The notes beneath the pieces were generated by a model, which worked only from the letters and a program-made list of their open reading frames with translations, was not told the DNA's origin and searched no databases. A stretch of DNA of 55,654 nucleotides from assembly GCA_903855135.1 (NCBI GenBank), contig CAINYB010000014.1:1-55654 (forward strand), read 5' to 3'. Below are positions 18,228 through 37,622 of this stretch, in pieces; position 1 is the first letter of the stretch; each line of letters opens with the position of its first letter. This DNA comes from an uncultured bacterium (lineage in GTDB: Bacteria; Patescibacteriota; Patescibacteriia; UBA1558; GWA2-36-10). The translations under genes and the position numbers were made by a program.

Positions 18228-18303
18228 GCCGAGATAGCTCAGTTGGTAGAGCTACAGTTTTGTAAACTGTGGGTCGCAGGTTCGAATCCTGTTCTCGGCT
18301 CCA
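18228..18303 (+). tRNA. tRNA-Thr (anticodon TGT)
   Basis: Cloverleaf GCCGAGA/TCTCGGC, ACAGT-TT TGT AA-ACTGT, GGTTCGAATCC, encoded CCA. Confidence 0.97.
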
Positions 18304-18701: not shown

Positions 18702-19364
18702 ATGAATAAAAAAGAAAAAGCGGTTATTTTAAGAAAGCGTGGCCAATCATTAGCAGAAATAGCTGAAATTTTAAAAATTTCCAAAAGTACAGCTTCTTTA
18801 TGGTTAAAAAGCATTGGCATTTCTAAAGCTGGTAGATTACGTTTACAAAATAGGATTACAAAAGCCAGGGTTAAGGGTGGCCAGGTAAACCACGTAAAGA
18901 AATTAGGCGATATAGAAAAAATTACTGAGTTTAGTCAAAAATTGATTAAGAATTTAAAATTTTCAAAAATTGACTATAAAATATTTTGCGCACTTCTGTA
19001 TTGGTGTGAAGGAAGTAAAGGCGGTAATTCTGTACGTTTTATTAATTCTGATCCATATTTGATTAAAACTTTTTTATTATTTTTACGTCTTGGGTTTCAG
19101 ATTAGTGAAGATAAATTTAGGGTTTGTTTACATCTGCATAAATATCACAAAATAGAGGAAGAGATCAAATATTGGTCTAATATTACAGCAATACATGGCA
19201 GTAAATTTTTAAAAATTCATCAAAAAGCAAATACAGGGAAAAGACTAAAGGATAATTATCATGGTTGTGCTTCTATTCGTTATTATGATGTGTCAGTTTT
19301 GAATGAGATAAAAATTTTGTATAAATTATTATTTATAAATAATGGGGGAGTAATTCAGTGGTAG
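18702..19364 (+). CDS. HTH + LAGLIDADG-like (homing endonuclease-related) protein overlapping tRNA-Trp
   Basis: GQSLAEIAEILKISKSTASLWLK HTH; ALLYWCEGSK..VRFINSDP LAGLIDADG-like motif; stop TAG lies in the tRNA D-arm. Confidence 0.7.
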   Translation: MNKKEKAVILRKRGQSLAEIAEILKISKSTASLWLKSIGISKAGRLRLQNRITKARVKGGQVNHVKKLGDIEKITEFSQKLIKNLKFSKIDYKIFCALLYWCEGSKGGNSVRFINSDPYLIKTFLLFLRLGFQISEDKFRVCLHLHKYHKIEEEIKYWSNITAIHGSKFLKIHQKANTGKRLKDNYHGCASIRYYDVSVLNEIKILYKLLFINNGGVIQW

Positions 19365-19417
19365 AATGTTGGTCTCCAAAACCAATCACGAGGGTTCGAT
19401 TCCTTCCTCCCCTGCCA
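19344..19417 (+). tRNA. tRNA-Trp (anticodon CCA)
   Basis: GGGGGAG/CTCCCCT acceptor, TTGGT-CT CCA AA-ACCAA, GGTTCGATTCC, encoded CCA. Confidence 0.96.
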
Positions 19418-19638: not shown

Positions 19639-20223
19639 TTAGCGGCTGCTTTCTTTTTTTATTTCTAATAATAATTTTTGATGACGTTCTTTTAATTTTA
19701 CGAAAAGGTTTTCATGTTTTAATTTCGGTTCAGCAATCTTAATAAAATATTCTAATTTTTGAATCAAGATTTTTTCCATCTCAGGATTATTACCGAAACG
19801 ATAGTAATTACTATTATCTAAGATATCAGCACATTTAATCATTAGAGCTTCTTTACCAGCATATTTGGTTCTCTTAAACATTTCCTGGTATTGTTTTTTC
19901 TTGTCTTTAATTTTTGTTTTAAAAGAAACCGCAGATACTAAATTACTGATTTTTTTCCCAAATTTTTTTTCAAGATCTTTAATCGTTATTTTTGAGTCTT
20001 CTAATAAATCATGTAATGTTGCTGCAGCAATTGTCGTGGCAGGTGATCCGTTTTCTGCTAGCGAACAAGCTACTTTTAGGCTGTGAAAAATTACTGGCTT
20101 TTCATTAAAGCCACTTTTTGAATATTCAGTCATTAAAAAAATCATAGCATTTTCAATGATTTGACTGTCTTTTTTTGAGTATGCTTTTCCCATAATTTTG
20201 TCTAAACAATTTATATTGTACAC
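19639..20223 (-). CDS. HD-domain hydrolase, RelA/SpoT HD (Mesh1/small alarmone hydrolase)-like
   Basis: PVIFHSLKVA, AATLHDLLED, FGKKISNLV, IKCADILDN; alternative start ATG 20193. Confidence 0.8.
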   Translation of the reverse strand: MYNINCLDKIMGKAYSKKDSQIIENAMIFLMTEYSKSGFNEKPVIFHSLKVACSLAENGSPATTIAAATLHDLLEDSKITIKDLEKKFGKKISNLVSAVSFKTKIKDKKKQYQEMFKRTKYAGKEALMIKCADILDNSNYYRFGNNPEMEKILIQKLEYFIKIAEPKLKHENLFVKLKERHQKLLLEIKKESSR

Positions 20224-20364: not shown

Positions 20365-21108
20365 ATGAAAAAGATTGAACTGATCGGCCTAGAGAATATC
20401 CCCTTGGTAAACAAGGGTGACGATTTGGGTCGGTTAATCATCAAGTCCGCTGTTGAACAGGGGATTGATTTTCGTCAGGGAGACATCGTCGCTGTTGCTC
20501 AGAAAATCGTTTCGAAAGCAGAGGGGCGAACCGTTGATTTGGCGATGATCGAACCATCTGTTCAGGCTCGTGAGCTTGCTGGTCAAACTGGTCGTGACCC
20601 TCGGCTCTGCCAGGTCTATTTGAATGAGTCGAGTGCTGTTCTGCGGATCAAGGGGCGAATGATTATTACGCGTCACAAGTTGGGATTTGAATGTTCCAGC
20701 GCGGGCGTAGATCGTTCAAATGTCGCTCCTCACGCAGCGGGCATCGTTGTGTTGTTGCCTGAAGATCCTGACGAAAGCGCTCGTAAAATTCGCCAGGCCA
20801 TTCGTGATCGTTTTAGAGTCACTGTCTCTGTGGTGATCACAGATTCACTTGGTCGTCATGATCGAGAAGGATCAATTGGTTTGGCGATTGGCGTGGCGGG
20901 GATTAGCCCCATAGAGGTCAGGCATCAACAAGATCTTTATGGCAATGAGGCTAAAACTGGCATTGCCATCGTTGATGAAGCATCAGCAGCAGCTTCCTTG
21001 ATCATGGGTCAGGCGGATGAGAATCTGCCGGTGGTCGTGGTCAGGGGCGTTCGCTATACCGTGGACGATCAAGCGTCAATCCAACAACTTCTGATTTTGG
21101 GAGACTGA
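20365..21108 (+). CDS. CofE-family (F420-0:gamma-glutamyl ligase-like) protein
   Basis: IPLVNKGDDL, AQKIVSKAEGR, AGVDRSN, LPEDPDESAR, ITDSLGR, MGQADENLPVVVVRG; ATG 20365 preferred. Confidence 0.88.
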   Translation: MKKIELIGLENIPLVNKGDDLGRLIIKSAVEQGIDFRQGDIVAVAQKIVSKAEGRTVDLAMIEPSVQARELAGQTGRDPRLCQVYLNESSAVLRIKGRMIITRHKLGFECSSAGVDRSNVAPHAAGIVVLLPEDPDESARKIRQAIRDRFRVTVSVVITDSLGRHDREGSIGLAIGVAGISPIEVRHQQDLYGNEAKTGIAIVDEASAAASLIMGQADENLPVVVVRGVRYTVDDQASIQQLLILGD

Positions 21109-21110
21109 TC

Positions 21111-22337
21111 ATGAATTTCTTGACTTTGAACAGAGGTTGCTTGGATCCTAATGAGCAACCATTCGAGATCGTCGAAAGGAAGGGTTTGGGTCATCCCGAT
21201 TCTTTGGCCGACGGTCTGGCTGACGCTATTTCAATTGCCTATTCCAAATACTGTTTGGATAGGTTTGGTGTGGTGCCGCATCACAACTTGGACAAGGTCT
21301 ACATCGGTGGTGGGCATTTTCTGCGAGACTACGGTTCTCGGACGATGCTCGCGCCGATTCAGCTCATCGTGAATGGTCGGATCAGTAATTCGATGGATGG
21401 ATCGGAAATTGATGTTCAGAGTATTCAGCGTGAAGCTGCCTCTGAATTTCTCGCGCCTTTGATGCCGCATTTGGATGTCGAACAGCACCTGGAGATACAT
21501 CCGAATGCAACGCAACATACGCAACGGGATTTCTGGTTTTCTCCTCGATCACGAGAAGACCTTCACGAGTTGTCTCGTCTCAAGGCAAACGACACGTCTC
21601 TGTGCGTTGCTTATGCGCCTTTGTCTGTTTGCGAACTTTTAACCATTGTCTTAGAGCAAGCCTTCTGGAATGTTCAAGAAGATGGGGGTAGGGTTCCTCG
21701 TTGGACTGACATCGGGCAAGATATCAAAGTGATGGTTCTGCGTAACGGCAGACAGATTGATGTCACGGTTTGTGCGCCTTTCATGAGCAACTCCATGAGT
21801 TTTTATGAGTATTACCTCCAACGTGTATCCGAGACTGAGTCCTTGTTGCAACAACTCGCAGAGAGTGTCGTTGGCAACAAGTATCAGGTCAAGGTGGAGG
21901 TGAATACTGCGGGCCGTCTTTACATGCTTGGTGTGGGTAGCTGCATTGAGTGTGGTGAAGAAGGCATCGTTGGACGAGGCAATTCCTCTGGAGGTTTCAT
22001 CGCCGCTGGCAGGCCTCATTCCATGGAAGCTGCTTTCGGGAAGAATCCGGTCTATCACACTGGGCGTGTTCTGGGATATCTGACGCAGAAGTTGGCTTGG
22101 GCCATCTATCGTCAGACTGGCGTTCCCAATGTCATTCACGCCTTGACGATCAACGGTGGAGGCTTGGTTCCTCCGGATAGATTGGTGATTAGTACGGCTC
22201 AGGAAGTTTCTCGTACAGCGATCGCTGATATTGTTGAGCGAGAATTTCTGAACACTGATTACCTTTCTGAGGTTTTGCGAATGCCGGCGGTATTCAGAGC
22301 TCTGAATTTCGTCGCTCAAGATCTGCAAAGGAGGTGA
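21111..22337 (+). CDS. Archaeal-type methionine adenosyltransferase (SAM synthetase) homolog
   Basis: EIVERKGLGHPDSLAD, HHNLD, ANDTS, GQDIKVM, VGRGN, SMEAAFGKNPVYHTG. Confidence 0.9.
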   Translation: MNFLTLNRGCLDPNEQPFEIVERKGLGHPDSLADGLADAISIAYSKYCLDRFGVVPHHNLDKVYIGGGHFLRDYGSRTMLAPIQLIVNGRISNSMDGSEIDVQSIQREAASEFLAPLMPHLDVEQHLEIHPNATQHTQRDFWFSPRSREDLHELSRLKANDTSLCVAYAPLSVCELLTIVLEQAFWNVQEDGGRVPRWTDIGQDIKVMVLRNGRQIDVTVCAPFMSNSMSFYEYYLQRVSETESLLQQLAESVVGNKYQVKVEVNTAGRLYMLGVGSCIECGEEGIVGRGNSSGGFIAAGRPHSMEAAFGKNPVYHTGRVLGYLTQKLAWAIYRQTGVPNVIHALTINGGGLVPPDRLVISTAQEVSRTAIADIVEREFLNTDYLSEVLRMPAVFRALNFVAQDLQRR

Positions 22338-23278
22338 TTACATTGGATCAATACAAGTGTGCCGTTATCTCTGGAGGAGTTTCGGTAAACTTCGCCAGTG
22401 ACATGCCACTTCTTGAACTGTTTAACCAATCTGGTTACACTAGGCATTTCCCGGATTTTCATTGCGTCGATCAGCACCTGTCAACACCCTATCTGGTTCA
22501 TTACCGAAACAGAGAAGAGATGACAGTCGAATACAGCGGATCGACAGCAATTCTGAACTTCCCTTGGGAATTGATGAGAAAGGGCGAAACGATTCTGTAT
22601 GCAGCCTATCCCTTTGTCGAACGTCAGTTGCAAGGACTCGGCATCGTAACGGCTCATGCTGCTGCAGTTACGTTTGGTCAGGATGGAATCATGATCATCG
22701 GTAAGATTGGTGCTGGTAAGACTTCTACTGCCATGGAATTGTGCAGGAAGCGTGGCGCCAAGCTCATTGCCAATGATTTGTGTTTGGTCGGTGGTGAAGA
22801 TGAATGTCGAATTGTGGGAGGAACGAAAGACTTCCATGTCCGACTGGAATCTGCTCGACGTAACCTACCTGATCTGGTTCCTTTTTTCTCTGAACGTCCT
22901 GGCCTCGATTCCTGGTCGAACAAGGTTGTCTTTGACCCAGTCAAACTTGGCATTCAACTGCAAGACGAACCCGTGCCCTTACGCAAGGTGGTGCTTGTTC
23001 ACGTTGATCAAAGCCAGAAACGTTTAACGGTTCAACCGAAGAGCGATTTGGTTTTGCGACTATTGTTGAACGAGAACTTCTCGCGTTACATCAGGTCCAC
23101 AACCACAACCTTACTGGGTGGTGATTCCTATGATCTTCTGGGGTACATTCCTTCGATGGATTCCCCAGAGCTTTTCGAGAGACGTAGAAGGCTCATCAAC
23201 CATATCCTCGTTGATGTGGGAGTAGTCTATGTTTCCGGTAAGGTGGAGGAAGTGGTCGATGCGGTTGCTCGACTTTAG
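22334..23278 (+). CDS. HPr kinase-related P-loop kinase
   Basis: HAAAV, GKIGAGKTS, LIANDL; GTGA overlap with the upstream stop; SD AAGGAG. Confidence 0.7.
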   Translation: MITLDQYKCAVISGGVSVNFASDMPLLELFNQSGYTRHFPDFHCVDQHLSTPYLVHYRNREEMTVEYSGSTAILNFPWELMRKGETILYAAYPFVERQLQGLGIVTAHAAAVTFGQDGIMIIGKIGAGKTSTAMELCRKRGAKLIANDLCLVGGEDECRIVGGTKDFHVRLESARRNLPDLVPFFSERPGLDSWSNKVVFDPVKLGIQLQDEPVPLRKVVLVHVDQSQKRLTVQPKSDLVLRLLLNENFSRYIRSTTTTLLGGDSYDLLGYIPSMDSPELFERRRRLINHILVDVGVVYVSGKVEEVVDAVARL

Positions 23279-23325
23279 CCAAGATTGGCTTCATTCGTTG
23301 AAAAGTGTCCACAAACGTGGACAAG

Positions 23326-23357
23326 GACCGCGGTTGACAAAACTGCGGTCTTTTTTT
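23326..23357 (+). terminator. Intrinsic terminator ending the high-GC triad
   Basis: GACCGCGGTT-GACAA-AACTGCGGTC followed by T7. Confidence 0.85.
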
Positions 23358-23362
23358 ATAAT
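23334..23362 (+). promoter_or_regulatory. Consensus sigma70 promoter embedded in the terminator
   Basis: TTGACA (23334-39), 17 nt, TATAAT (23357-62). Confidence 0.8.
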
Positions 23363-23421: not shown

Positions 23422-24561
23422 ATGAAAGTGTGCGTTGGAATACCTTCCTACAATGAAGCGGATAGAATATCTTTTGTGGTTTCACAAATTGATAAAGGTT
23501 TGAAGTTGTTGCGTGAAAATTTTCCACAAATTAATGATTGTGTAATTTTGAATGCAGATAGTTGCAGTAGTGATGATACTATAAAGAGATTTAATAACAC
23601 AGACACTTTATTTATAAAAGATTCAGTTTTAACTAAGGGTGAACCAGGCAAGGGCAAGAACGTCCTTGCTATTTTAAAATACGCTTTAGAAAATTCTTGT
23701 GATGTGGTTCTGACTATTGATGCGGACTTAGAAAGTATTACGCCAGATTGGATGTTAAAATTTACGGAATTAGTAATAAACAAAAAAGCAGATTTTGTTT
23801 ATCCGGAATATAAACGTAACAGGTTTGAAGGTAGCACAACGAATCATCTGGCATATCCTTTAATTTATGCTCATTTTGGTAAAGACATTAGACAGCCAAT
23901 TGGTGGAGATTTTGCCATGAGTTCAGAATATGCTCAATACATATTAGAACAGCAAGTGCCAATAGACGCTTATAAGTTTGGTATAGATATTTTTTTATCT
24001 ATGAATGCGGCTAGTGGAGAATTTGTTGTTCAGGCTGCTTAATTAGGTAAGAAAATACATAAACCAAGTTTTCCAAGAATGAGAGAAATGTTTCCACAAG
24101 TTGCATCTGCTGCGCTGGAGACTTTACTTCTACATAAGAGATCTTTAAAATTTGATGACGTTGATAAATCAGATATTAATATAACAGATAAATCAATTTT
24201 TTCGCATTCTAAAGAAGCAAAAATGATCTTAGAAGAAGAGTTAGGTAAATGCTCTAAAGATTTTTTAAGTTCACTCAAATGGTTGGATGAGCGAACTTTA
24301 CTTAATTTACAAGCTATTTTACCAAAGAATCATTTGAAGTTTGATTCTAGTCATTGGGTTAATGTTTTAGGAGATTGGGTTTCTTTTGCTTCGAACAATT
24401 CAATAATGGATATGCAAAACTATTCTCAGGAACTTTTACCATTTTTTGTAATTAGAGCTGTAAACTTTTGGAATGAAAGTAAAAATAAAACAGCTAATTG
24501 GGTCGAAAATGAAATTCGTATGCAGGCTTTAGATTTAAAAAAATATTTTGATCATAAATAA
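23422..24561 (+). pseudogene. GT-A glycosyltransferase (mannosyl-/glucosylglycerate synthase-like) split by an in-frame TAA at 24040-24042
   Basis: VGIPSYNE, GKG, IDADL, IRQPIGGDF, FGIDI; same frame continues QAA*LGKKIHKPSFPRMREMFPQV. Confidence 0.8.
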
Positions 24562-24563
24562 TT

Positions 24564-25421
24564 ATGTATTTTTCAGTTTTATTAGGAAATCCAGTTGAAC
24601 ATAGTATTTCTCCAAAATTATTTTCTCTTTTAGCAGATGATTTGGGGATTGAGTATGCTCACATAAAAATGAATGTTCCATCTAAAAATAAATTACCAGT
24701 ATTTTTGAACAGCTTAAAAAACATTGGTTGTTATGGAATTAATATAACTTTACCTTATAAAATAGCCATTATGGGCCATGTTGATGCTATTGAGAAAGAA
24801 GCTAAGCAAATGGGGGCGGTGAATGCTATTTATTTTAAGAATGGGAAATTTATTGGTTTTAATGCAGATGCTCCCGCTGCTTTAATGGCGATTGAAAAGA
24901 AATTGAAAACAATCACAGCTAGAGATAAAGTTTTAATTTTAGGTGCCGGTGGGGCTGGTAGAGCAATTGCTTTTGAGATCAGAAAAAGAACTTCTCATAT
25001 TATTATTGTAGATAAAGAAATTAAGAAGGCAAAGGAATTGTCTGACAATTTAGAGAAATCAAATAATATCTTATATAAGAAATTTAATAATAAAGATATA
25101 ATTTCTTTAATTAAAGATTCTGATTACATCATTAACGCTAGTCCAGTGGGCATGACTCCGAACATTGATGGTATTCCTGTAGATTTTTCTTCTATAAAAT
25201 CTCTAAAGGGTAAGTATTTTTTTGATGCAATATTCAATCCTTATGAAACTAAATTTTTAAAATTAGCAAAGAAAAAAGGAGCAATGACCTGTTCTGGTAT
25301 GTACATGATGATTTTCCAAGCAGCTTATGTTTTAGAAAAATGGATCAATAGAAAAGTTAAAATTAATGACTTGGAAAAAATTAATAGTATTTTGATAGAT
25401 TATTTAAAAAATCATGCATAA
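24564..25421 (+). CDS. Shikimate dehydrogenase family protein (AroE-like)
   Basis: GNPVEHSISP, NITLPYK, GAVN, GFNAD, LGAGGAGRA, INASPVGM. Confidence 0.88.
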   Translation: MYFSVLLGNPVEHSISPKLFSLLADDLGIEYAHIKMNVPSKNKLPVFLNSLKNIGCYGINITLPYKIAIMGHVDAIEKEAKQMGAVNAIYFKNGKFIGFNADAPAALMAIEKKLKTITARDKVLILGAGGAGRAIAFEIRKRTSHIIIVDKEIKKAKELSDNLEKSNNILYKKFNNKDIISLIKDSDYIINASPVGMTPNIDGIPVDFSSIKSLKGKYFFDAIFNPYETKFLKLAKKKGAMTCSGMYMMIFQAAYVLEKWINRKVKINDLEKINSILIDYLKNHA

Positions 25422-27228
25422 AATTTCAATTATTAATGATGAAATTTCTCAAGACATCAATGATGTTATCAAATTTTGTAAAAATAATAATCTTGATGTC
25501 ATAGAATTAAGATCAATTAATGGTAAAAATTTAATTGACCATGATTTTACTTTTCTAAAAAAAATTGCCAAAAAACTTTTAGCAAATAACATAGATGTGA
25601 TCAGTATAGCATCGCCAATTCTGAAATGGAAAAATGAGAAAAAGCATACCATTACTAAAGATGTTAGAATGCATAATTTTTCCGGAAAGAGTACTAACTA
25701 TGAAAAAGTTTTTGAGATTTCGAAAGTATTTAACGCCAAGTATATTAGGATTTTTTCTTATCTCAAATATGATAATTTCAAAATTGATGATTTAGATAAA
25801 GATTTTGAACAATTAATTAGCTTAGCTAAAGAGTATAAAGTAAAATTATTGTTGGAGAATGAGCCAGTTTGTAATATAGACACAATTGATAAATTAGAAA
25901 AAGTTATTAAACGTTTTAATAATCCATATCTAAAAATTTTATTAGACATTGGAAATTTATATGAAATGGACTTTTCAGTGTCTAAATTGGATATTAGTAA
26001 AATTGTTGATTCCATTGAATATCTTCATATCAAGGATTTTTCAACAAAAGAAAAAATTTATAAGATTTTAGGAGAAGGGGACATAAATTACAAAAAACAT
26101 ATCTCTGATTTATTGGAATTATCTTCTAAAAAGAATTTTGTATTTTCTTTGGAGACTCATACTAAGGAAAATAAATATAAGAACTCTGAACAATCGTACA
26201 TAAATTTAAAAAAAATAATCAAAACAAAGAAAAATATAAAATATGGAATTATTGGCTGTGGTAGAGTTTTTGCTAAACACGCTAAATCTATAAAATATAC
26301 GGAAAATGCTTTTTTAGACGGAGTTTATGATATTGATAAAGTAAAATCAAAAAGTGCTGCAAAGGAATTTGATTGTAGTTTTTTTTCAGATTTAAATGAA
26401 TTGATAACTAACGTAGATGTTGTTAATATTTGTACCCCTCACAATACCCATGTTGGTTTGATTACATCTGTTTTAAAGGCAAACAAAAAATGTCTTTGTG
26501 AAAAACCGGTAGTATTAAATGACAAAGAATACAAAACAATTATTAAGATAAAAAATAGCAAAAAGAATTTATTTGTTGTTTACCAGAATAGATTTAATCA
26601 AGCCATTCAAAAAATTGATGAGCTGATTAAGAAGAATGCATTAGGAAAACCTTTGTACATTTTTGGCAATGTCCGTTGGTTTAGACCAATAGATTATTAT
26701 AAAAATAATTGGCAAGGCACAATTAAAAAAGAGGGTGGAATTTTATTTAATCAGGGTATACATTTGATTGATATCTTAATGCGTTTTGGCAAAATAAGTA
26801 ATCACAAGAACATTAAGATAAAAGATGCTGTAAAGAGAAAAATTTATCATAAAAAAATAGAAACTGAAGATATGTTTGTTTCTCATTTCGAAGCAAATAA
26901 GATTCTTTTTAATTTGGAAGTTACCGTTTCTTCTATTCCTGAAAATTTAGAGAGTTCTATTTTTATTATTTTTGAAAAAGGTTCGATTTTAGTATCTGGT
27001 GATGCGTTGAATGAGCTGAAATTTGTGAAAACTCCATATTTTTCCACGGATTCATTTGTCGAAAATATTCGTGATGTTTATGGTAATGGTCATAGAAAAT
27101 TAGTAGAGTCTCTTACAAATTATTTATTAAATAATACTGTGGATGATAAATTAACTCATTTTGAAGAAGCTTATCAAAGAGTAGCCTTTATTAATAAATT
27201 ATATGAACATGAAAAAACCAATCGTTAA
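25414..27228 (+). CDS. Fusion of xylose isomerase-like TIM barrel (sugar phosphate isomerase/epimerase) and Gfo/Idh/MocA oxidoreductase
   Basis: LLENE, LDIGN, LHIKD, GEGDI, SLETH; then GIIGCGRV, ICTPHNTH, LCEKP, QNRFN, NQGIHLID. Confidence 0.85.
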   Translation: MHKISIINDEISQDINDVIKFCKNNNLDVIELRSINGKNLIDHDFTFLKKIAKKLLANNIDVISIASPILKWKNEKKHTITKDVRMHNFSGKSTNYEKVFEISKVFNAKYIRIFSYLKYDNFKIDDLDKDFEQLISLAKEYKVKLLLENEPVCNIDTIDKLEKVIKRFNNPYLKILLDIGNLYEMDFSVSKLDISKIVDSIEYLHIKDFSTKEKIYKILGEGDINYKKHISDLLELSSKKNFVFSLETHTKENKYKNSEQSYINLKKIIKTKKNIKYGIIGCGRVFAKHAKSIKYTENAFLDGVYDIDKVKSKSAAKEFDCSFFSDLNELITNVDVVNICTPHNTHVGLITSVLKANKKCLCEKPVVLNDKEYKTIIKIKNSKKNLFVVYQNRFNQAIQKIDELIKKNALGKPLYIFGNVRWFRPIDYYKNNWQGTIKKEGGILFNQGIHLIDILMRFGKISNHKNIKIKDAVKRKIYHKKIETEDMFVSHFEANKILFNLEVTVSSIPENLESSIFIIFEKGSILVSGDALNELKFVKTPYFSTDSFVENIRDVYGNGHRKLVESLTNYLLNNTVDDKLTHFEEAYQRVAFINKLYEHEKTNR

Positions 27229-27877
27229 AGTTTTGATACCAGGGATACCTTTAAAAACTAAATTTGGCGGTTTAGGTTATTGTAGTATTGTTTTGATAAT
27301 TGATGGCGATAAAAGAATATTATTCGATACAGGGCACTATAGTGTAAGGAACAATATATTAAAATATATTAAGTTGTACAAAATCAATACTTTATTTTTA
27401 TCACATTTACATTTTGATCATTGTTTAAATGCTGATTTATTTTCAGAGTTTAATATAGACATATATGTGCATCAAAAAGAATTAGATCGTTTGAAATCAA
27501 AGAAAATCTCTGATGTGTATACTTTTTATTTTTTTAATCAAATTGTTAAAAATAAAAAAATTAAAATTTTCAAGAAATCTTTTTATCTATCACCAAATGT
27601 TTTAGCGATTGAGACTCCTGGCCATACTTCTGGGCATTCTTCTCTTGTTGTTAATAATTTAAATAAGTCATTTATTATAGCCGGAGACGCTTTAAAAACT
27701 TATAAAGATTTTACATCTAAAACAAAAAAGAATGATAAAACAGCAGAGGATCAAGTGCAAATGAGAAGGACTTTAGAATATATAAAAGACAATTTTGATA
27801 TTATTATTCCAGGACATGATGTTATGATAGAAAATGGCAAAAGAGTCAAGTCTAATGCTGATTTTTTTGAGTTTTAA
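27209..27877 (+). CDS. Metallo-beta-lactamase fold hydrolase
   Basis: LFDTG, SHLHFDHC, TPGHTSGH, AGDA, IPGHD. Confidence 0.9.
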   Translation: MKKPIVKVLIPGIPLKTKFGGLGYCSIVLIIDGDKRILFDTGHYSVRNNILKYIKLYKINTLFLSHLHFDHCLNADLFSEFNIDIYVHQKELDRLKSKKISDVYTFYFFNQIVKNKKIKIFKKSFYLSPNVLAIETPGHTSGHSSLVVNNLNKSFIIAGDALKTYKDFTSKTKKNDKTAEDQVQMRRTLEYIKDNFDIIIPGHDVMIENGKRVKSNADFFEF

Positions 27878-28004
27878 AACTCCTTTTTGTACTGTCGCAT
27901 TTGTCGCATTTTGACCTACTGAGATACTTAATTTTAGATTTATAAATCCATCTTAAAACCCTTGTAAACTTTGTTATATTTTGGTTCTAGACCGACTGAC
28001 ACTG

Positions 28005-36614: not shown

Positions 36615-37622
36615 ATGCTCAAAACAGCAGAAAATGTATCTTGGGGACACCCAGATAAAGTGTGTGATCAAATTTCTGACGCTATTTTAGATGAGTGTCT
36701 CAAGCAAGATCCAAATAGTCGTGTAGCTGTCGAAACTATGGGTGGCCATGGTAAGCTTTTTATTTTAGGCGAAGTGACAACTTACGCCGACTTTGATCCA
36801 GAAAAAATCGCAAGAGAAGTTTATCGAGAAATTGGCTATGAAGACGAGTTAGAGATCAAAGCTTATTTAGTGAAGCAAAGTTCAGACATTGCTCAAGGTG
36901 TTGATCTCGGTGGTGCCGGTGACCAAGGCATCATGGTCGGCTATGCAACTAATGAGACAACAGAGCTTTTGCCTTTAGAACATGTTTTAGCTACTAAACT
37001 CATTCGTCATTTAGAGGAGCTGAGAGCAGACAAAAATAATCAACTGGCGCAATTTTTATTACCAGACGCTAAAGCGCAAGTGACGCTTGATGGAGAGAAA
37101 ATAAAAACTGTAGTTTTATCTACTCAACATCGTGATAATATCAGCACAGAAGTTTTGCGTGATTTAGTGATCAAAGAAGTGATTAAGCCGATTATTCCAG
37201 CTTATGAGCAAGTGTTTATCAATCCAACTGGCATTTTTTTACAAGGTGGCTTTAGTGCGGATACTGGTTTGACTGGTCGTAAAATCACTGCTGATAATTA
37301 TGGTCCACAAATCCCAGTCGGTGGGGGAGCTTTTTCTGGCAAAGATGCAAGCAAAGTCGATCGCTCGGCCGCCTATATGGCGAGGTTTTTAGCCGTTGAA
37401 TATTTAAAGAAATATCAAGCCAAAGAAGTGCTAGTAAAACTCGCTTATGCTATCGGCAAAAAGGAGCCAGTAATGTCTACAGCCATGGTAGATAACAAGC
37501 TGATAGAAATCACAGGGTATGATTTATCTCCGCAAGGCATTGTTGATTTTTTACATTTGAAAGAGCCACAATTTAAAAATCGTGCTCGTTTTGGTTTTTT
37601 TCAAGATTTTTTAATAACTTAA
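36615..37622 (+). CDS. metK: S-adenosylmethionine synthetase (bacterial type)
   Basis: GHPDKVCDQISD, GAGDQG, DAKAQVT, DTGLTGRKI, GGGAFSGKD..KVDRS. Confidence 0.97.
   Translation: MLKTAENVSWGHPDKVCDQISDAILDECLKQDPNSRVAVETMGGHGKLFILGEVTTYADFDPEKIAREVYREIGYEDELEIKAYLVKQSSDIAQGVDLGGAGDQGIMVGYATNETTELLPLEHVLATKLIRHLEELRADKNNQLAQFLLPDAKAQVTLDGEKIKTVVLSTQHRDNISTEVLRDLVIKEVIKPIIPAYEQVFINPTGIFLQGGFSADTGLTGRKITADNYGPQIPVGGGAFSGKDASKVDRSAAYMARFLAVEYLKKYQAKEVLVKLAYAIGKKEPVMSTAMVDNKLIEITGYDLSPQGIVDFLHLKEPQFKNRARFGFFQDFLIT

Follow-up and report, generated by a model that had tools for sequence, protein, structure and literature searches.

The locus examined here raises the question of what three closely packed genes, encoding a CofE-like ligase, an archaeal-type S-adenosylmethionine (SAM) synthetase and an HprK-like kinase, do together at positions 20365-23278 of a 55,654-bp stretch of bacterial DNA, referred to below as the window. 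The window is contig 14 of a genome of 810 kb in 28 contigs (96.6% complete), and the named relatives of its proteins are Patescibacteria. An earlier note, based on the letters of the sequence, had described the three genes as a portable pathway that adenosylates, phosphorylates and amino-acylates a small molecule. This study found that the triad recurs at dozens of other loci, that it belongs to a four-gene core completed by a glycosyltransferase (GT), and that phosphatases and an orphan AroE-like gene, neighbours omitted by the note, accompany this core. Tentatively, and at a little under an even chance, it is proposed by analogy with known enzymes that these genes form a Patescibacteria-specific accessory biosynthetic cassette, moving between lineages, that would make a glutamate-capped, glycosylated hydroxy-acid. 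The core genes and their signals, with coordinates in the window, are as follows.

20365..21108 (alternative ATG start 20338), + strand: predicted CofE-family GTP-dependent gamma-glutamyl-type amide ligase (PF01996, TIGR01916)
21111..22337, + strand: predicted archaeal-type methionine adenosyltransferase (MAT) of a kinase-linked subclade (PF01941, match to MjMAT)
22334..23278 (probable start TTG 22343), + strand: predicted P-loop kinase of PEPCK/HprK fold (sub-threshold Hpr_kinase_C match, AlphaFold2 model and Foldseek)
23323..23353, + strand: intrinsic-terminator-like hairpin and T-run at the end of the triad unit (13-pair stem with 6 GC pairs, then TTTTTATAATT)
23334..23362, + strand: sigma-70-like promoter for the GT gene (TTGACA-17-TATAAT, 12/12, consensus match only)
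23422..24561, split into 23422..24042 and 24079..24561, + strand: predicted MGS/GpgS-type retaining GT (family of ~375-aa intact homologues)

The triad consists of three open reading frames (ORFs) on the same strand, running from 20338 or 20365 to 21108 (256 or 247 aa), from 21111 to 22337 (408 aa) and from 22334 to 23278 (314 aa). Their GC contents are 0.50, 0.49 and 0.48, with GC at third codon positions (GC3) of 0.48-0.51, against 0.25-0.34 (GC3 0.20-0.25) in the adjoining genes, and the step is sharp at both edges, at ~20400 and ~23350; the coupled, compositionally distinct block (48-50% GC against 25-34% in its neighbours) was thus confirmed. So was the 2-nt gap between the ligase and MAT genes, where the stop TGA (21106-21108) is followed by 'tc' and the start ATG 21111, with GGGAGA upstream of it. 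At the MAT-kinase junction GTG 22334 does overlap the MAT stop TGA (22335-22337), as the note had said. However, since the AAGGAGG box at 22328-22334 abuts this GTG, while its 8-nt spacing fits the in-frame TTG 22343, the latter is more likely the kinase start, and the functional junction may be other than the 'GTGA overlap'. The unit has its own terminator, a 13-bp stem with T-run, as claimed. The terminator and the GT promoter share bases, TTGACA lying in the hairpin loop region and TATAAT after the T-run. In one metatranscriptome run from another study the triad is represented by three short contigs, including one across the MAT-kinase junction; they come from a related strain and the library may contain DNA, so that they are only a hint of expression. 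The same run has no contig over 23324-24600, and the missing cover there carries no meaning.

In order to see whether the triad is kept together elsewhere, a neighbourhood comparison was made over 43 loci, comprising the window, 16 loci from a scan of one genome per prokaryotic species for the kinase-family motif [NY]ENFSR[YG]IR, 8 loci from a phylum sample of 401 Patescibacteria genomes (400 sampled plus that of the window), and 18 of 33 metagenome loci, 14 having been dropped as shorter than 5 kb and one as the same contig as locus L002. The set includes near-duplicates (L094, L095 and L096 with L015; L081 with L007). The kinase is present in 42 loci, the MAT in 41, the GT in 37 and the CofE-family ligase in 33. 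The MAT gene lies directly upstream of the kinase gene in 36 of the 40 loci having both; in the other four the two are adjacent in another order or separated by one HAD gene. All 16 motif-scan loci have the MAT beside the kinase (one as a fragment) and most have the ligase; they also carry homologues of the window's flanks, namely an HD hydrolase upstream and the GT, AroE-like and metallo-beta-lactamase-fold (MBL) genes downstream. The co-occurrence of the triad is not due to chance, as relatives stand in the same arrangement at dozens of other loci, and the notion of a portable unit is upheld.

The module is nevertheless uncommon. Strong kinase matches (E<=1e-40) were found in 10 of the 401 genomes, all ten of which have PF01941 and eight PF01996, the two without the latter being 85% and 88% complete. 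These few carriers are spread over many families, and the kinase is missing from all other sampled genomes of the window's class, which makes the module an accessory trait of rare and patchy distribution. Kinase-like matches in three further genomes (G027, G116 and G393; E 1e-14 to 1e-17) have no module gene nearby and were assigned to another family.

The first enzyme bears directly on whether the locus belongs to F420 metabolism. The ligase matches PF01996 with E 1.1e-65 (221.7 bits, cut-off 25) and the structures 2phn and 7uld in the Protein Data Bank (PDB) with E 5e-40, the match to Af-CofE spanning residues 3-232. With the match of the second enzyme to PF01941, this sustains the CofE-like and archaeal-type MAT assignments of the note, and the HprK-like one also holds at family level. 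No match to CofC, CofD, CofG or CofH was found in the 96.6%-complete genome of the window, nor to the LLM and PNPOx families, which include most F420-dependent enzymes; the models PF01933, PF01983, TIGR03550, TIGR03551, PF00296 and PF01243 gave no matches there and were positive in known control genomes. The F420H2-dependent reductase model PF04075 was also blank, but matched no control genome either and was disregarded. According to the extracts of PMC10861534, Phe92 of Af-CofE stacks behind the deazaflavin. The aligned residue of the window ligase is Met99, and among 17 module ligases this column is non-aromatic (M, T, N, H, V or A) in 16 and F in one. Since the other F420 genes and users are absent and the stacking phenylalanine is not kept, the module is not F420 biosynthesis. 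Neither is it a fragment of an F420 operon, a possibility that the note had left standing: the genome has no other F420 gene, and the homologues do co-occur.

The chemistry of the family, activation of a carboxylate with GTP and addition of L-glutamate, is probably kept, and the head group recognised is probably other than a deazaflavin. Compared with CofE and FbiB's N-terminal domain, the module ligase is of the same family, scoring above the TIGR01916 cut-off, and GTP-dependent activation of a carboxylate beside a (phospho)hydroxy-acid moiety would be expected for it too; its neighbours, however, are MAT, kinase and GT in place of CofC and CofD. The chlamydial CofE-like FolC2 (TIGR04132, a putative folate gamma-glutamate ligase) works outside F420 metabolism in a reduced genome. 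The window ligase scores only 61.3 bits on TIGR04132 against a cut-off of 350. In Patescibacteria, a phylum not known for F420, PF01996 is found in 85 of the 401 sampled genomes. Most of these matches score 100-190 bits and lie outside the cassette; some of the proteins are open frames of ~395-428 aa, and genomes G117 and G104 have tandem pairs.

The MAT matches PF01941 with E 2.1e-75 (254.5 bits, cut-off 27) over residues 14-336 and MjMAT in the PDB with E 4.8e-55, and is below every NCBIfam MAT cut-off (best NF003362, 360.8 bits against 481). When 24 kinase-linked MATs were set against 9 further MATs of archaeal type from the candidate phyla radiation (CPR), residues H28, D30, HHN57-59, D61/K62, N160/D161, D204/K206, Y271, R289, N291 and K311 were kept in 20-24 of the 24. 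The extracts of PMC3853416 describe His28 as catalytic, His-His-Asn and Asn160 as contacting the methionine carboxylate, Asp204 as the ribose-binding residue and Tyr271 as the stacking residue. As in the archaeal enzymes MjMAT, TkMAT, PfMAT and SsMAT, the module MAT thus keeps the catalytic His, the methionine-carboxylate contacts, the ribose Asp and the stacking Tyr; it differs from them in forming a separate bacterial (CPR) clade below the NCBIfam cut-offs and in adjoining a kinase gene of PEPCK/HprK fold. In a quick tree (33 and 9 rows without an archaeal outgroup; near-duplicates, L055 and short ORFs left out) the kinase-linked MATs form one side of a branch with SH-aLRT 99, apart from the other CPR MATs, and the latter have no module gene nearby at any of their 9 loci.

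The window's genome holds two SAM synthetases, the module MAT and a bacterial-type MetK, the latter listed for context only.

36615..37622, + strand: predicted bacterial-type MetK (PF00438, PF02772, PF02773)

This MetK is short (335 aa) and scores 117.6 bits on PF02773 against ~230 in many other Patescibacteria, resembling the short MetKs (~315-345 aa) in part of the phylum sample. Bacterial MetK (PF02773) occurs in 148 of the 401 genomes, but among the ten kinase carriers in that of the window only; PF01941 occurs in 19 genomes, two of which have both types, and a canonical archaeal-type MAT is additionally present in carrier G033. In over half of the 401 genomes neither the PF01941 nor the PF02773 model reveals a SAM synthetase. 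Because its catalytic residues are kept and it is the sole MAT in 9 of 10 carriers, the module MAT is probably a SAM maker and usually the only SAM synthetase of the cell. The idea that it adenosylates some other molecule therefore gave way to SAM as the likelier product, essentially all SAM-synthetase residues being retained. In locus L050, genes for a SAM decarboxylase and a C-methyltransferase stand directly upstream of the MAT. Prediction of a complex between the MAT and the kinase scored 0.00 in both runs and decides neither way.

No Pfam or NCBIfam model, those of PEPCK included, reaches its cut-off on the kinase: it scores 29 bits on Hpr_kinase_C (cut-off 33.3) and 23.4 on TIGR00679 (cut-off 240). 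Its AlphaFold2 model (pLDDT 94.2) was compared with known structures by Foldseek. The best match is E. coli ATP-PEPCK over both domains (E 4.6e-11, TMq 0.47-0.54, TMt 0.31-0.35, identity 10-14%), while HprK/P superposes by the C-terminal P-loop domain only (TMq 0.24-0.26). The HprK-like label thus stands for the C-terminal domain, and the whole-length fold is nearer to ATP-PEPCK, with which the protein shares the two-domain architecture in 314 aa against 504-540 aa. The family invariants comprise the P-loop GxxGxGKT/S, His108, Asn147-Asp148, many arginines and the motif NENFSRYIR. The P-loop, the upstream His and the (N/D)D after the P-loop are shared with PEPCK and HprK, which belong to a single P-loop superfamily, whereas NENFSRYIR is the family's own; together these residues would suit an anionic small substrate. 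ATP-PEPCK is a C3/C4-acid kinase, and the PEPCK-like whole-length fold of the model points to a small acid substrate rather than to a protein or a phosphotransferase-system role. An exhaustive profile search placed 207 clusters in the family at E<=1e-30 and 597 at E<=1e-10. No fused or longer forms were found at E<=1e-5, which is weak evidence, and none of six motif-pattern matches in viral contigs encodes a relative of the kinase.

The fourth core gene is broken in the window. An in-frame TAA at 24040-24042 splits it, the conserved motif LGKKIHKPSF resumes in frame right after, and both pieces belong to one family with intact homologues of ~375 aa. The T at 24040 is also present in contigs of two runs, possibly of the source sample, but in a related strain from another study (95-99% identity over these pieces) the position is C, giving CAA, and the many other differences of that strain in this gene fall mostly at three-base spacing. 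On these grounds, the stop is a recent strain-specific nonsense mutation in a gene formerly under purifying selection. The GT step is interrupted in the window's genome, the triad itself being intact.

The intact GT homologue of locus L001 was modelled (AlphaFold, pLDDT 92). Its best Foldseek match is mannosylglycerate synthase (MGS; 2y4j_B, E 1.9e-13, TMq 0.74) over the whole length including the C-terminal helical domain; the top eight matches are all MGS chains (TMq 0.71-0.75), with GpgS and MpgS ranking next. When 16 homologues were combined into a profile, it matched GpgS (E 3.3e-14) and MGS (5.8e-12) in the PDB, while scores on the GpgS NCBIfam model (44.9-47.3 bits) were below its cut-off of 262. 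Invariant residues are E12, K76, D99/D101, T139, D188 and H212, and a motif QP(I/L)GG(D/E) is also conserved; T139 aligns with the carboxylate-binding Thr of GpgS. The extracts of PMC2581804 assign to MgS and GpgS a ribose-binding Glu, a Lys-Asp ion pair, a DXD motif, a Thr holding the acceptor carboxylate and a metal-binding His. Given the predicted MGS fold and these conserved functional residues, the GT very probably places a sugar on a small hydroxy-carboxylic acid. It thus resembles MGS (GT78), GpgS and MpgS in whole-length fold and in catalytic and acceptor-carboxylate residues, at an identity of only 13-25%. As in the GpgS and MpgS routes, a phosphatase is nearly always near the gene, but the known glucosyl- and mannosylglycerate pathways have no CofE-type ligase, kinase or MAT.

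Around the core, the window contains four further genes whose homologues recur beside it.

19639..20223, - strand: small SpoT/Mesh1-like hydrolase with HD domain, oriented divergently to the triad (PF13328 HD_4, E 2.7e-11)
24564..25421, + strand: AroE-like protein of the shikimate-dehydrogenase family (TIGR00507, 208.2 bits, cut-off 200.2)
25414..27228, + strand: xylose-isomerase-like TIM barrel fused to a Gfo/Idh/MocA oxidoreductase (PF01261, E 3.7e-14; PF01408, E 1.7e-23)
27203..27877, + strand: metallo-beta-lactamase-fold hydrolase, weakly lactonase-like (PF00753, E 2.1e-21)

Among the 43 loci, the HD hydrolase and the AroE-like protein each occur in 18, the MBL hydrolase in 9, the TIM/Gfo protein in 7, a second GT2 in 6, an APH-like kinase in 5, LarA-family, HAD and radical-SAM/SPASM proteins in 4 each, adenosine deaminase and HIT proteins in 3 each, and a ComB-like phosphatase in 2. 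More precise assignments are limited by scores below model cut-offs: the HD hydrolase scores 66.5 bits on TIGR00691, far below its cut-off, the MBL hydrolase 41-45 bits on lactonase models, far below theirs, and the TIM-Gfo fusion 91.8 bits on TIGR04380, which makes it weakly inositol-dehydrogenase-like. The type of phosphatase changes from locus to locus (HD, HAD, MBL or ComB-like), a variety to be expected if any phosphatase will do for the step. A 2-phosphosulfolactate phosphatase of ComB-like type (E 1.6e-50) comes immediately after the GT in both L013 and L014. As chorismate synthase, DHQ synthase and shikimate kinase have no match in the window's genome, the AroE-like enzyme appears from its family to be an orphan dehydrogenase for some hydroxy-acid. 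A LarA-family hydroxy-acid racemase stands between ligase and GT in four loci (the L015 group); its best NCBIfam models are malate racemase and hexonate epimerase, both below cut-off.

From these parts a pathway may be outlined. It would have four core members, the CofE-family ligase, the archaeal-type MAT, the PEPCK/HprK-fold kinase and the MGS/GpgS-type GT, of which the triad would be the co-transcribed core, and as accessory members one interchangeable phosphatase (HD, HAD, MBL or ComB-like) and often the orphan AroE-like dehydrogenase. The kinase would phosphorylate a small hydroxy-carboxylic acid, either glycerate- or lactate-like or shikimate-, quinate- or aldonate-like, provided, perhaps, by AroE, the TIM-Gfo fusion and the MBL enzyme resembling lactonases. 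The GT would then transfer a sugar from a nucleoside diphosphate sugar to the hydroxyl of the acid while gripping its carboxylate, and the phosphatase would strip the phosphate, as in the two-step GpgS/GpgP and MpgS/MpgP routes. The ligase would finally add glutamate to the free carboxylate with GTP, as on the lactyl carboxylate of F420-0 but with a non-flavin head group. The MAT would be a working SAM synthetase travelling with the pathway, the least clear point being how it is linked to the kinase.

A number of results weigh against this scheme, and the rival explanations build on several of them. The order of its steps follows family analogies; of the 43 loci, 10 lack the ligase near the cassette and 6 the GT; SAM-using enzymes are absent from most loci; 3-phosphoglycerate does not call for a kinase of its own; and the most constant pair, MAT and kinase, is what it explains least, the MAT only supplying SAM. 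Because of this pair, a SAM-derived product is kept as the main rival, on balance unlikely but a serious contender. The MAT would here be neofunctionalised, or SAM would serve as a scaffold, and the kinase would phosphorylate and the ligase glutamylate an adenosyl or sulfonium compound, giving a nucleoside-type cofactor, signal or toxin, with HD, HIT and adenosine deaminase acting on the nucleoside part. The two genes are indeed never more than one gene apart, the module does have nucleoside enzymes in its vicinity (3 loci with adenosine deaminase, 3 with HIT and 18 with the SpoT-like HD protein), and the window's genome keeps a separate MetK. Moreover, 21 of 24 kinase-linked MATs have Glu, and 9 of 9 other CPR MATs Asp, at the position equivalent to Asp283 of TkMAT, a residue that in the extracts of PMC3853416 contacts a ribose hydroxyl and the amino group of methionine; the last Arg of RGNR is lost across the kinase-linked enzymes. 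These changes, which also set the clade apart from the archaeal MATs, are systematic within the SH-aLRT 99 branch and make an altered substrate possible. On the other hand, the remaining SAM-synthetase contacts are kept, among them the Asp-Leu in the gating loop and the three residues that hold the carboxylate of methionine, and in the 9 of 10 carriers without another MAT ordinary SAM, if made, must come from the module enzyme. A SAM-derived product would also leave the MGS-type GT, with its carboxylate-binding Thr, and the hydroxy-acid enzymes unexplained.

The ligase likewise gives the hydroxy-acid scheme some difficulty, since by sequence it would be called CofE: it scores 241.9 bits on the F420-0:L-glutamate ligase equivalog TIGR01916 (cut-off 180.65), and all 17 module ligases match this model at E<=1e-10. 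This score and the match to Af-CofE would suit a ligase that gives a new or longer tail to F420-0, F420 or a deazaflavin acquired from a methanogen or actinobacterium host, the other genes being unrelated neighbours. Such a role is very improbable in view of the missing Cof genes and F420 users, the non-aromatic residue in place of Phe92, the wide presence of PF01996 in the phylum and the tight linkage of the ligase to MAT, kinase and GT in 33 loci. The kinase could instead act on a peptide or protein, possibly on the MAT as a regulator, with glutamylation by the ligase. In favour of this are the weak matches to Hpr_kinase_C and to HprK-related kinase B, the annotation of many kinase homologues with PF27840 (ScmC), and the structural relatives in the ESM Atlas, which include ScmC and HprK-related clusters (TM 0.68-0.73) from peptide-modification contexts and speak against the small-acid scheme. 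Four of the 43 loci also have radical-SAM/SPASM genes at a distance of a few kb from the cassette (among them L016 8882-10240, L009 10918-11946 and L091 4611-5651), and in L016 a B12-binding radical SAM gene stands between ligase and GT. However, 493 small intergenic ORFs within 2.5 kb of core genes formed clusters only in near-identical contigs, so that no conserved precursor-like ORF was found among non-duplicate loci, and the PqqD family is not among the recurrent neighbours. With the conserved partners being small-molecule enzymes and the whole-length fold nearer to PEPCK, a peptide or protein target has a low probability. The same holds for the absence of any common pathway, that is, a housekeeping SAM synthetase that came to lie beside unrelated accessory genes through genome compaction, which is given only a small chance. 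The ordinary look of the MAT, its being the sole SAM synthetase in most carriers and the separate transcription signals of triad and GT in the window would agree with it, but the four families remain associated although gene order and strand change, in genomes of many families, the kinase family is found only with the kinase-linked MAT clade (10/10 genomes), and the other archaeal-type CPR MATs stand without module genes.

The composition of the module bears on its history. Triad and partners contrast in GC in L001, L002, L003, L005 and L006 as well; no such contrast exists in L009, L010, L012 and L016, and in L014 it is reversed, the module having 0.45 and the flanks 0.55-0.6; closely related MATs have GC3 of 0.76 (L013), 0.42 (L014) and 0.49 (L092). 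As the module deviates from its flanks in both directions and related MATs differ in GC3, these data point to movement between hosts of different GC. The view of the triad as a recent foreign island proved too simple. Within the window's own lineage, divergence from homologues is as great for the AT-rich partners as for the GC-rich triad: with L071 the triad identities are.75,.73 and.71, against.61 for HD and.65 for AroE. This weakens a recent import of the triad alone and leaves the GC contrast without an explanation, a further point that the proposed mobile cassette does not accommodate. The TIM-Gfo fusion and MBL genes (25000-28000), with a GC content of 0.24-0.27 against ~0.34 for the whole window, are exceptionally rich in AT even by the standard of this genome, so that both the AT-richest and the GC-richest parts of the window fall within the cluster.

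All the enzyme families have been described before. No description of their combination was found in the literature that could be searched, nor as a system in the family libraries, and it would represent a small-molecule cluster based on glycosyl-hydroxy-acid chemistry. There is a real chance that its product is a new class of metabolite. A bolder and decidedly unlikely version would be a new anionic CPR metabolite class, a sugar-(phospho)hydroxy-acid with a gamma-glutamyl cap, carrying an F420-type tail on a glycoside or on an adenosyl or sulfonium head; the PEPCK-fold protein would then be a new 2-hydroxy-acid kinase family and the MAT site, with Asp283Glu, would be tuned to the pathway. To our knowledge, a 2-hydroxy-acid kinase activity ('CofB') has long been postulated and has never been assigned to a gene.

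Patescibacteria have tiny genomes and almost no biosynthesis. Since a module of six to eight genes is kept together and passed between lineages in such genomes, its product is probably important for their lifestyle, whether as a solute, a surface precursor, a cofactor or a host-directed molecule. Three groups of enzymes deserve interest in their own right, namely CofE outside F420 metabolism, the kinase family with its miniature PEPCK fold (207 clusters) and the separate MAT clade. There is also a practical consequence. In the extracts of two studies (PMC10904782, PMC12960796), 'cofE' is counted in metagenomes or viromes as a marker of F420 or methane metabolism. Such counts can mislead, because PF01996 occurs in 85 of 401 Patescibacteria genomes and the window ligase passes the CofE cut-off in a genome with no other F420 gene.

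Searches against collections of defence and phage proteins gave little. PADLOC models assigned no family to the triad proteins or to five out of six neighbouring proteins, the sixth, the HD protein, giving a single chance-level match (E 0.0021), and PHROGs had no match for any of the three triad proteins. Just upstream of the module, at 18702-19364, lies a gene for a 220-aa helix-turn-helix protein with a weakly IS630-transposase-like N-terminus (15.8 bits); it is situated between tRNA-Thr (18228-18303) and tRNA-Trp (19344-19417), and its 3' end overlaps the latter.

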